From a virus (taxonomy: Duplodnaviria; Heunggongvirae; Uroviricota; Caudoviricetes): a DNA stretch of 22,394 nucleotides. The stretch lies in the IMG/VR virus record IMGVR_UViG_2627853701_000001; one strand, written 5' to 3'. A program made the position numbers. Positions 1-3,000 of this stretch are shown piece after piece. How positions within the stretch are numbered: the first letter of the stretch is position 1; each line of letters opens with the position of its first letter.

Positions 1-3000
1 ATGGAAAACAAATGTATTGAAAGTGAGCAAATCTTTTTTGCTAAGATGAACAGGTATAGTTTCAAACTGTCAGATAAGAAATGGCAACTGGATAAAGAAA
101 ACTGCGTATACCCTCATAAAGTTGTAGATAGAATGCCTACAAAAATGAAACTTAGCTACTTAAAAACATTGGCTTACTATGCGTCTGAATATAGTTCTTT
201 TTATATTCAAAGTATTAACAATCTATTTTATGAGTGGTTTGGTGCGATGACTATCGATACTATTGATGACAAAGCAATATATCAATTGAATGTTTATTTA
301 GGTTCAGAAAGAAACTACAAACTAAACTTAATTAAGGCTTTCATCATTAAATGGAAAAATCTCAATTACCCTGGGGTAGAAGCGACTGCCATTAGAATGC
401 TGGAGAAAATAAAAATCATTCCAAACCAAACAGGAGATGCAGTTAAAAGACGAGATCCAAATAAAGGACCTTTAACTGAAGCGGAATTCAATAACATCAT
501 TAACGCCGTTGGAAAATTTTATCATGAGAAGAAAATTCAATGCTTTTTGTATTGTTATATCCTTTTGCTGGCAATAACAGGAAGAAGGCCATTACAATTA
601 ATATCTCTAAAAGCTAAAGATCTCATTAAAAATGAGAGAGGGTGCTTTTTGAATGTACCAAAAGTAAAACAAAGAAAATGTTTCAGAAAAGAATTTAACA
701 TGGTTATGATAGAGCCGTTCTTATATGACAGCTTATCAATGCTAATTAATCAAAATCAGGCGTTTGTTGAAGATAAATTCAGTGTTGGGATTAGTAACTA
801 TAGAGGCGAATTACCAATCTTCATGAATTTAGATAAGATTACGGAAACAAAAAGGATTGAGGATTTTTTATATGATTTAACAACAGATTTTTTCCATATG
901 AAAAATTCAGTTATGTCAAAACTATTAAAACACTTTCCGTCAAAATTCGATGTTAGGTCAGAAAGGACTAACAGCTATATAGAACTTAATGCTAGAAGAT
1001 TCAGATATACGTTAGGAAGTCGACTGGCTAATGAAGGAGCCTCAATTGAGGTGATTGCTAAAGCGTTAGATCATAAATCAGTAAACTCTTCTATAATATA
1101 TATAAAAAATAATCCTGACAACGTTTATGACATCGATAAGAGACTAAGTGCGTTTTTTAACCCCTTATCTAATATACTTATGGGCATAGAGATTGAAGAA
1201 AACAAGAACTTTTTTATCAAGTTTGTTTCAGATGCATTTTTCTTATTGGAAGATACGAAAGAGGATTTGAAATGTTTAACGTGTAAAAAATTCAATCCCT
1301 GGAGAGCATTATGAACAATATATTTATTTTTGAACCAAGCAATAAAAACAACCCTCTCGATAATGTTATTAAGTTTATCGAGTTTTGTAAGAGTACTATT
1401 TCTAATAATAATTTAACAACTTCATGGGAAAGCAATAAATGGAAAGGTTTATATAGGTTTACTAAGTTTAACTCAAAAAACAACCTAAACAGCAAGGAGT
1501 GCTTAGATGATAGCTTTATTAATTTTGCTAAAGCATATATGTTGCATGTGCATTCATTCAATAAATCTAAGACGAAACACTCAACATTATCAATGTTGAA
1601 GATTGTCGAATTCGTTTTACTTAAAATCAATATGGAAGCTAATGTAAACTATTGCAACAATTCAATCTATGATGAATGCATAAGGATAGCCTCTGAAAAG
1701 TATTCTAAAGCACATGCATTTGCTATTGGGAAAGAACTTGAGAAATTGAGTTCATTTTTAAATGATAATAGGATGACTAACTCATTTTATTTATTTTGGG
1801 TAAATCCAATTAGGTATAGGATTACTCAGTCTTGGACTGGTTATGATTCTTCACTGGAAGGCCATTCTAGATTGCCTGATATCAAATCAGTTATTGCGAT
1901 TGCTGAGATTTTTTCAAAGCGGGATGAACAATTATCGTCAAGAGATATATTTACTACATCTGTGCTTGCTTTACTTATGTGTGCACCGAGTAGGATATCG
2001 GAAATTTTAGCTTTGCCAGCGGATTGTGAAATCACAGAATGTGATGGAAAGGGCATTCAAAGATACGGTTTAAGATTTTTTTCAGCAAAAGGGTATGAAG
2101 GCAATATAAAATGGATTCCAACTTTAATGATACCTGTAGCTAAAAAGGCTATTAGCAGATTAAAAGAATTATCAAGTCAAGCGAGGTTATTGGCTGCTGA
2201 AATTCAAAAGAATTACTCTAATTCAACGAAGGGAACCCTTAAAGAAAATATACCTCCTGATCTCTTTTGGTATGATAGAGAGAAGAAAATCAAATATTCT
2301 AATGCGCTTTGCTTGTTAACTGAAGGACAGTTAAATCAAAATAAAAAGGAAATGTCAGATAAATTATTCAGACCTACAACGAATTTTTTTAAAACTGATA
2401 TCATTGATTCTGATTATATAAAAGGGTATTTTAATGTTTTTAAAAGACATGGTTATATAAATGAAGATGGTAGCCCATATTTGCTAAGAACACATCAACT
2501 AAGGCATCTTCTCAACACATTTGCTCAAATAAATGGTATGGATGAATTTAGTATTGCTCGCTGGTCTGGACGTAAGCTTATTTCTCAAAATGTTTCTTAT
2601 GACCACAGATCGCATCTTCAAATGTCTAAAGCAATAAGAGAAAAAAAGTTATCAGTATGTGTTAATGAGCACAGAATAAAGGATATTCCAGTAGTGGATC
2701 TTAATGAGTTTGACTCACTTAGTAGTGGTGCAGTACTTGTATCAAAACATGGCTACTGCAAGCACTCATATGCGTTTAAGCCGTGTGATAATTATCCAAT
2801 TAAGAACTCTGGTTTAGATAACGAAACGATTTCAAATATCCACGATAAAATTTTAAAAAGAACACTGTATGATAAAAATGATGGGAACATAAATGCTGAT
2901 AAATGGTATGAATTCCATAAAAAAATAAAAAAAGGAGAATAAATGGCTAAGCATATAAATGGTTATCATGAGAAGAAGATTGTAGATGTTATTAACACAT

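Follow-up and report, generated by a model that had tools for sequence, protein, structure and literature searches.

Several kinds of element, namely GInts (Genomic Islands with three Integrases), SE elements, RIT elements and Tn554, raise the question of how three different tyrosine recombinases divide among them the four strand cleavages of a recombination event. The present analysis concerns the 5' end of the IMG/VR virus record IMGVR_UViG_2627853701_000001, a stretch of 22,394 nucleotides that we call the window. A first-pass annotation described the first open reading frame (ORF1) of the window as the first of a recombinase trio, with RRFRY in place of the box II motif H-x-x-R-H. It proposed that ORF1 and a canonical downstream paralogue form a heteromeric recombinase in which one subunit may be catalytically altered or regulatory. 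Here, we identify ORF1 as the GinB subunit of a ginA-ginB-ginC-ginD module, with ginA located directly upstream of the window. As judged from sequence, the GinB family lacks both His-II and Glu/Asp-I of the recombinase active site and keeps an Arg-Lys-Arg-His-Tyr (R-K-R-H-Y) pentad. We favour, with moderate confidence, a reading in which GinB works as a catalytic subunit of a heteromeric GinABCD machine, by means of a variant active site.

The window matches the Escherichia coli O157:H7 chromosome with 100% identity and is located there between ileY/ypjA and ssrA. It begins with the ATG of ORF1. In RefSeq, a 401-aa gene annotated as 'tyrosine-type recombinase/integrase' (WP_000540864.1; genome record L001, 18794-19999) ends 1 nt before this ATG, so that ORF1 does not open the trio. 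The stop codon of ORF1 overlaps the start codon of ORF2 (ATGA at 1311-1314), and ORF2, whose stop ends at 2942, abuts ORF3, which starts at 2943. The gin unit thus consists of four co-directional, tightly packed genes, of which ORF1 is the second.

GInts carry a ginABCD operon that encodes three tyrosine recombinases and a small protein (Bardaji 2017). Excision and integration of the Pseudomonas GInt need all four gin genes, and a circle is excised (Bardaji 2017). Fragments of the three P. stutzeri DSM4166 recombinases (Bardaji 2017, Fig. S1) read GHRFRHTLGTDL...ALMHKNTQAVRKY for GinB, NTHAFRHELNT...AFSGRTTRGSVYNH for GinC and MGLRRSEML...HTHILRHD...MFGWSPDSNMPGHY for GinA. From box II onwards, they give 'GHRFRHTLGT...LMHK...Y' in GinB, 'THAFRHELNT..SGR..YNH' in GinC and 'HILRHD..GWS..Y' in GinA. 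The ORF1 translation includes ELNARRFRYTLGSRLANEGASIEVIAKALDHKSVNSSIIYIKN, and its motif stretches are ELNARRFRYTLGS...ALDHKSVNSSIIYIKN. With GinB it has x-R-F-R-x-T-L-G and L-x-H-K...Y in common, the latter as L-D-H-K. ORF2 and GinC have H-x-x-R-H-x-L-N-T...S-G-R...Y-[ND]-H in common (H-Q-L-R-H-L-L-N-T...W-S-G-R...Y-D-H in ORF2). The upstream 401-aa protein contains GLRAGEL, HRLRH and MGW...Y as counterparts of the GinA motifs. Moreover, the ginC-ginD blocks of Idola 2023 (Additional file 10) include ECs_3509/ECs_3510 of O157 Sakai together with WP_001052051/WP_001059531, which are ORF3 and ORF2. These motif matches and this listing identify ORF1 as the GinB of an already catalogued GInt. Gene order, size pattern and motifs of the O157 locus are those of the archetype, with three recombinase genes and a small fourth gene. 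GinA and GinB have been described as bearing RHRHY or RHRY (Bardaji 2017, Idola 2023). One difference concerns precisely this motif. In P. stutzeri GinB, the two box II positions are both occupied by His (GHRFRH), whereas the O157 clade has Arg and Tyr.

Predicted fold and family assignment both indicate that ORF1 is a true tyrosine recombinase. Pfam PF00589 matches residues 325-372 (profile positions 123-170 of 172) with 43.9 bits for a cut-off of 27.1. The NCBIfam equivalog NF041502 (integrase_1) scores 320.6 bits over profile positions 2-392 of 484, under its curated cut-off of 350, and relatives of about 520 aa score 632-661 bits. NF041502 represents this ~520-aa branch of the GinB family, and ORF1 belongs to a shorter sister branch. 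The AlphaFold2 model of ORF1 (predicted local distance difference test, pLDDT, 86.8) has a two-domain recombinase fold. A Foldseek search with this model gave 59 PDB matches at E<=1e-3, the best 50 of which are all tyrosine recombinases, including XerA, IntI4, XerH, Cre, Tn1549 Int and lambda Int. XerC and XerD are the best sequence and structure matches to the catalytic domain.

A phmmer search of the PDB with the single ORF1 sequence gave no match, and a family profile built from 37 homologues was needed to establish residue equivalences. This profile aligns without gaps over 50 residues with box II of XerD, XerA and a XerC-like PDB protein, its own consensus against XerD being 'klnArRFRYTlGtrlAreGasievIAkaLDHsdiqsagiY'. 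ORF1 A-R332-R-F-R335-Y336-T faces XerD P-H-V-L-R-H-A. Thus, R332 occupies the His-II position (XerD H244), R335 is Arg-II (R247), Y336 corresponds to the non-catalytic His that follows Arg-II (H248), H358 is His-III (H270) and Y367 is the nucleophile (Y279). The profile alignments with XerA and XerD, as well as an hhalign comparison with the GinA family, place R196 at Arg-I, Q199 at the Glu/Asp-I position and K223 at the catalytic Lys. The comparison with GinA sets K223 opposite GinA K255; in the model, K223 lies in the loop after a beta strand (strands 214-220 and 232-237). The gapless alignments therefore bear out the replacement of H-x-x-R-H by RRFRY, in the register first proposed. The companion claim, that two conserved His positions are changed, is right for R332. 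It does not hold for Y336, since only the first His of box II, and not the one after Arg-II, belongs to the catalytic set (Gibb 2010, NAR 38:5817, Table 1). A second deviation of ORF1, Gln199 at Glu/Asp-I, had not been noticed.

To what extent are these features shared by the family? A hidden Markov model search of 1.84 billion representative proteins returned 760 sequences at E<=1e-30. Residues were counted in the best 150 of these, taken as representatives at 50% identity; as these score best against a profile derived from the ORF1 clade, the wider GinB family may hold more His-bearing members. Arg-I (R196) is found in 149/150, the catalytic Lys (K223) in 149, Arg-II (R335) in 149, His-III (H358) in 142, with Gln in the other 8, and the nucleophile (Y367) in all 150. 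At the Glu/Asp-I position (199), Gln is present in 145 and Glu in only 1. The His-II position (332) is highly variable, with R in 59, Y in 25, T in 24, K in 11, I in 9, V in 7, N in 4, L in 4, Q in 3, H in 2 and S in 2. Position 336 is mostly Y (91) or R (49), with H in 2. Three further positions are characteristic of the family: Arg333 is strictly conserved (150/150), Arg229 is found in 146 and His299 in 141. Sequence conservation therefore indicates a family that does without both His-II and Glu/Asp-I and keeps the R-K-R-H-Y pentad. Positions 332 and 336, one helical turn apart, covary. A basic residue is usually present at one or the other, and at both in only 6 cases for about 23 expected (Fisher p=1e-9, kinship ignored).

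The high conservation of His299 could suggest that the motif alignment is shifted and that a normal His, coming from another structural element, occupies the catalytic position in three dimensions. We consider this very improbable. The gapless alignments put R335, H358 and Y367 on Arg-II, His-III and Tyr, leaving R332 at His-II. A comparison of the ORF1 and ORF2 families with hhalign, though weak (E=0.086, probability 0.66), agrees on the register by pairing R332 with H395, R335 with R398, Y336 with H399 and Y367 with Y430. His299 was also considered as a stand-in for the lost His-II and was rejected, as P. stutzeri GinB has both a His in the corresponding 'TFHIG' and a His at the 332 position.

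The retained residues are exactly, as far as the alignments tell, the R-K-R-H-Y pentad common to tyrosine recombinases and type IB topoisomerases (TopIB). His-II is the least conserved catalytic residue of recombinases (87% His, 6.8% Tyr; Gibb 2010). Type IB topoisomerases perform their chemistry without equivalents of Glu-I and His-II (Gibb 2010), and GinB resembles them in this respect. A further likeness is the basic residue located three positions before Arg-II; in vaccinia TopIB, the residue at this place, K220, is directed away to the +1 phosphate (Gibb 2010). GinB differs from the topoisomerases in that its fold and operon context are those of a recombinase. The nucleophile and the pentad are near-invariant over diverged lineages, which argues that the GinB pocket is under selection for chemistry. 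In the mechanism that we propose, GinB would still cleave and rejoin DNA. Together with two other, different catalytic subunits and the small GinD, it would assemble on asymmetric attachment (att) sites, and different half-sites or strands would be handled by different subunits. The basic residue at 332, or at 336 in other clades, may contact a neighbouring backbone phosphate in the manner of vaccinia Lys220 rather than the scissile phosphate. Gln199, Arg229, His299 and Arg333 could form a support network specific to GinB.

Several points weigh against an active GinB. In vivo, Cre is inactivated by H289R as well as by H289K, and in vitro no activity could be measured for Cre E176Q (Gibb 2010). 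By the Cre yardstick, each of the two GinB substitutions would be disabling, and GinB, if active, must have a differently organised pocket. The gene knock-outs of Bardaji 2017 fit a catalytic or a structural role of GinB alike. The share of His-less sequences may be overestimated for the wider family, given that the counts come from best matches to a clade-built profile, and the archetypal P. stutzeri GinB does have His at both box II positions. Finally, activity of the O157 copy itself is only presumptive, its island being truncated and its att sites not found.

The same Cre data (H289R/K and E176Q inactive; Gibb 2010) would fit the main alternative, a GinB whose catalysis is abolished or strongly impaired and whose role is architectural or regulatory. 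Such a subunit would bind its half-site and control GinA and GinC via cyclic C-terminal tail contacts, with no cutting. Active-site residues can indeed act allosterically, as illustrated by XerC R148K, which stimulates XerD (Gibb 2010). The mid-operon protein of SE elements, Tfp, has a recombinase fold without catalytic motif, and the hypervariability of position 332 is also in line with a non-catalytic role. We nevertheless regard this possibility as unlikely. The near-invariance of Tyr (150/150), of both Arg, Lys, His-III, Gln199 and Arg333 points to purifying selection on the pocket. Tfp lost its motif residues, GinB did not, and TopIB shows that the retained pentad is enough for chemistry. 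Of the two options put forward by the first-pass annotation, 'catalytically altered' is thus plausible, with two non-canonical positions, whereas 'regulatory' is not favoured, the pentad being kept in 142-150 of the 150 representatives.

A more specific version of an active GinB can be imagined, in which it is a natural 'topoisomerase-like' recombinase and the loss of both helper residues shifts the balance of cleavage and ligation or the order of strand exchange. We give it rather little credence. In Cre, Holliday junctions build up with many mutants at E176 and H289, and with H289A the strands are exchanged in the reverse order. If the idea were true, asymmetry of the GinA/B/C synapse could let one strand pair alone exchange efficiently. 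This would explain why several GInts and SE elements circularise without leaving an empty site, in a copy-out-like manner.

The catalytic GinB that we favour has to be seen together with its partners. A synteny scan was run on one genome per species with a 16-sequence query seeded on RRFRYT, and is no gauge of motif frequency. It gave 48 loci in several proteobacterial classes. Hosts are Enterobacterales, Aeromonas, Psychrobacter, Pseudomonas, Halomonas, Shewanella, Hahella and two Alphaproteobacteria; further loci belong to a Burkholderiales metagenome-assembled genome (MAG), a Syntrophobacteraceae MAG and one member of the Vicinamibacterales (Acidobacteria), this last locus without A-B-C-D order. 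The genes abut in A-B-C-D order in about 45 of the 48 loci, and ginD follows ginC in 43. The idea of a heteromeric recombinase is therefore borne out in kind by co-encoded paralogues, by the recurrent gene order and by the need for four genes (Bardaji 2017). Heteromeric action is already established for the GInt element type.

In the syntenic operons, GinA is canonical (R/E/H/R/W/Y). Its sequences have Arg-I in 47/47, Glu in 47/47, His-II in 45/47, Arg-II in 47/47, Trp-III in 43/47 and Tyr in 45/47. GinC has Arg-I in 44/45, Glu in 45/45, His-II in 44/45, Arg-II in 45/45 and Tyr in 45/45, and always Arg at the His/Trp-III position (R/E/H/R/R/Y). The ORF2 residues are R228, E231, H395-Q-L-R398-H399, R421 at the His-III position and Y430; R228, the box II stretch, R421 and Y430 are invariant in 29 homologues. 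The downstream paralogue is canonical, as first described, in its HQLRH motif, but not at His/Trp-III, where Arg421 is equally invariant. ORF2 box II was aligned to a XerC-like PDB chain. The best 50 structural matches of the ORF2 AlphaFold2 model (pLDDT 76) are all tyrosine recombinases (Cre/Tre, XerH, Tn1549 Int, IntI4, XerA, lambda Int). No meaningful alignment was obtained between the GinC and GinA families with hhalign, and we infer that R228 is Arg-I from the motif 'PSRISEILAL..D' and from the helix/beta-hairpin order in the model.

GinC has been said to be without the first Arg (Bardaji 2017) and without the RHRY motif and catalytic Tyr (Idola 2023). The residues read here seem to disagree with these descriptions, at least for the clades scanned.

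Both GinB and GinC have conserved Cys residues downstream of the nucleophile. In the C-terminal tail of GinB, C425 and C428 are each present in 143/150 representatives and F431 in 142/150. In GinC, G481, C483, Y487 and C492 are invariant (window 2751-2789, ORF2 aa 481-493). Tyrosine recombinases do not usually have conserved Cys pairs in this region. In GinB and GinC, these residues might bind a metal or mediate a contact between subunits.

The gin module may be compared with other multi-recombinase systems. SE elements (2023, Mob DNA 14:7) also have a four-gene module, with three recombinase-fold proteins, the middle one of which deviates, and a small coiled-coil accessory protein. However, Tfp exceeds 550 aa and has no RHRY, whereas R, K, R, H and Y are all present in the 437-aa ORF1. 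Proteins of SE elements and GInts fall into distinct clusters by sequence, with the O157 locus on the GInt list (Idola 2023). By its sequence, ORF1 is not an SE Tfp. Tn554 resembles the gin module by description: TnpA/TnpB/TnpC include more than one tyrosine recombinase, one ordinary and one large, plus a small protein, TnpC, which GinD is reported to resemble. Tn554 differs by its two recombinases instead of three and by its hosts, Firmicutes and Actinobacteria. XerC and XerD are paralogous heteromeric recombinases, each pair of which exchanges a defined strand pair, but the Xer system has only two subunits, each of which carries every canonical residue, and serves chromosomal housekeeping. 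RIT elements carry three canonical recombinases of 315-410 aa, no fourth gene and terminal inverted repeats. The O157 locus falls outside this definition by its 543-aa third protein and its conserved fourth gene.

The features of the locus are collected in Table 1. ORF2, ORF3 and orf4 have no match in PHROGs, Pfam and NCBIfam. A scan for promoters and terminators gave fewer promoter-like sites than in shuffled sequence.

Table 1 Genes and recombinase motifs of the gin locus, in window coordinates
Feature	Position	Strand	Basis
ginB-like ORF1, 437 aa, WP_000428092.1; second of three tandem tyrosine recombinases	1..1314	+	ORF call, PF00589, NF041502, AlphaFold2 model, RefSeq
Box I 'TGRRPLQL', aa 193-200; R196 Arg-I, Q199 in place of Glu/Asp	577..600	+	profile alignments to XerA, XerD, GinA
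'PKVKQRKCFR', aa 220-229; K223 catalytic Lys, R229 family-specific, near-invariant	658..687	+	conservation, GinA alignment
Box II 'ARRFRYTLGS', aa 331-340; R332 at His-II, R333 family invariant, R335 Arg-II, Y336	991..1020	+	profile alignment, conservation
'LDH...IIY', aa 356-367; H358 His-III, Y367 nucleophile	1066..1101	+	profile alignment
C-terminal tail C425-x-x-C428-x-x-F431-x-P-W434, family hallmark	1273..1302	+	conservation; low-pLDDT tail
ginC-like ORF2, 543 aa, WP_001059531.1 (annotated 'DNA-binding protein')	1311..2942	+	family invariants, XerC-like alignment, AlphaFold2 model
ginD-like ORF3, 132 aa, WP_001052051.1, small accessory protein	2943..3341	+	Idola 2023 Additional file 10; position after ginC
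orf4, 137 aa, hypothetical	3439..3852	+	conserved backbone gene directly after the gin module in Enterobacterales islands

The first 4.2 kb of the window are matched in 391 of 5,426 complete E. coli genomes, with at least 80% covered in 346, and no plasmid match was found for them. Nearly all E. coli carriers of the gin operon have DUF6387 and AlpA genes upstream of it (395 vs 391). An AT-rich block (~31% GC) extends from just after the upstream AlpA-family gene to about window position 5600. Strain A21 (NZ_CP028754.1) contains an intact relative of the O157 island. The A21 island is 16.6 kb long and starts with a P4-type integrase beside tRNA-Leu; its limits are marked by two identical 18-bp direct copies of the tRNA-Leu 3' end (L054, 192-209 and 16829-16846). 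After the integrase come DUF6387, AlpA, ginABCD, orf4, a relaxase gene and DNA methylase/HNH cargo. The stretch that begins 279 nt before ginA and ends at window position 3857, shortly after orf4, is 95.5% identical in A21 and O157. Beyond this point, A21 goes on with the relaxase gene and its defence cargo, while the O157 sequence departs from it. Homology of the O157 island with intact relatives stops at about position 3857, where the island is truncated. The O157 copy is a truncated remnant beside an IS30 fragment and a degraded prophage.

Truncation of the island after orf4, with loss of the relaxase and cargo found in A21 and strain CFSAN061771, and its position between an IS30 remnant and a degraded prophage, could suggest that the ORF1 substitutions reflect decay of a pseudogenising recombinase. 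We find this extremely improbable. Many O157 genomes carry the four gin ORFs intact and with 100% identity. RRFRY and Gln199 also occur in homologues from many genera with intact operons, and therefore predate the O157 copy. Family-wide conservation contradicts decay, as His and Glu are missing from these positions in close relatives within intact islands too.

The gin operon of E. coli belongs to the internal backbone of islands associated with tRNA or tmRNA genes and does not form their 5' boundary. In Pseudomonas, by contrast, it delimits the 5' end of the island beside attL. The DUF6387/AlpA linkage, the internal position in A21 and the lack of an empty site all argue that the operon is not the outer edge of the island. 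Indeed, none of the 5,426 E. coli genomes has alpA adjoining orf4 without gin genes, so that there is no sign of the gin module as an independently inserted cassette. Strain CFSAN061771 has the same AlpA, orf4 and relaxase flanks as A21, at the same chromosomal position as O157, around a very divergent ginABCD (L004, 10607-15481; GinB of 453 aa, GinC of 628 aa). This divergent set suggests module swapping between island backbones. GInts have short imperfect direct repeats as attL/attR, with an AT-rich 3' end. In a direct-repeat search of the A21 island, the tRNA-Leu 18-mer was the only convincing att pair, and none could be assigned to the gin proteins. An 18-nt repeat with 2 mismatches near ginA in A21 was rejected as an att candidate, as it lies inside the conserved ~95%-identical block and probably arose by chance.

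Downstream of the gin locus, an ORF at 4248-5606 encodes a 452-aa hypothetical protein. Within this ORF, a 6-bp unit is repeated perfectly in tandem (GCCAGA x 40.7, window 5267-5510) and encodes a long (Pro-Glu)n tract. This gene measures 1293 nt in strain 86-24 and 1359 nt in the window, and the array thus resembles a variable number tandem repeat whose length differs between O157 strains. After an IS30-family transposase remnant that lacks its C-terminus (6020-6775) comes a tandem repeat of TATTTC x 9.8 (6852-6910). Together, they mark the junction of the island remnant and a degraded lambdoid prophage. The prophage occupies 7000-21300. According to RefSeq annotation of the identical region, it contains NinG, antiterminator, holin and lysis remnants, together with IS66 and IS1203 copies, the type III effector genes espW and espM2, and DUF1076 (NleG-like) genes. 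The tmRNA gene ssrA (tag ANDENYALAA; 21335-21697, minus strand) and smpB (21912-22394, minus strand) close the window. The prophage and island complex is likely to have integrated originally at ssrA.

In the published view, GinA and GinB are ordinary 'RHRY' enzymes and GinC is inactive. Our alignments suggest instead that each subunit has its own fixed active-site signature, with a Cre-like Trp-III in GinA, a TopIB-like site in GinB and Arg at position III in GinC. Neither a GinB family without His-II and Glu/Asp-I nor such subunit-specific signatures were found in the literature searched. This matters little for E. coli O157:H7 itself, whose island is a truncated remnant. For the family, the subunit signatures point to point mutants for assigning which subunit cuts which strand. 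Gibb et al. have proposed that His-II and Glu-I were added later to an active site of the topoisomerase type, and GinB offers a natural test of this proposal.

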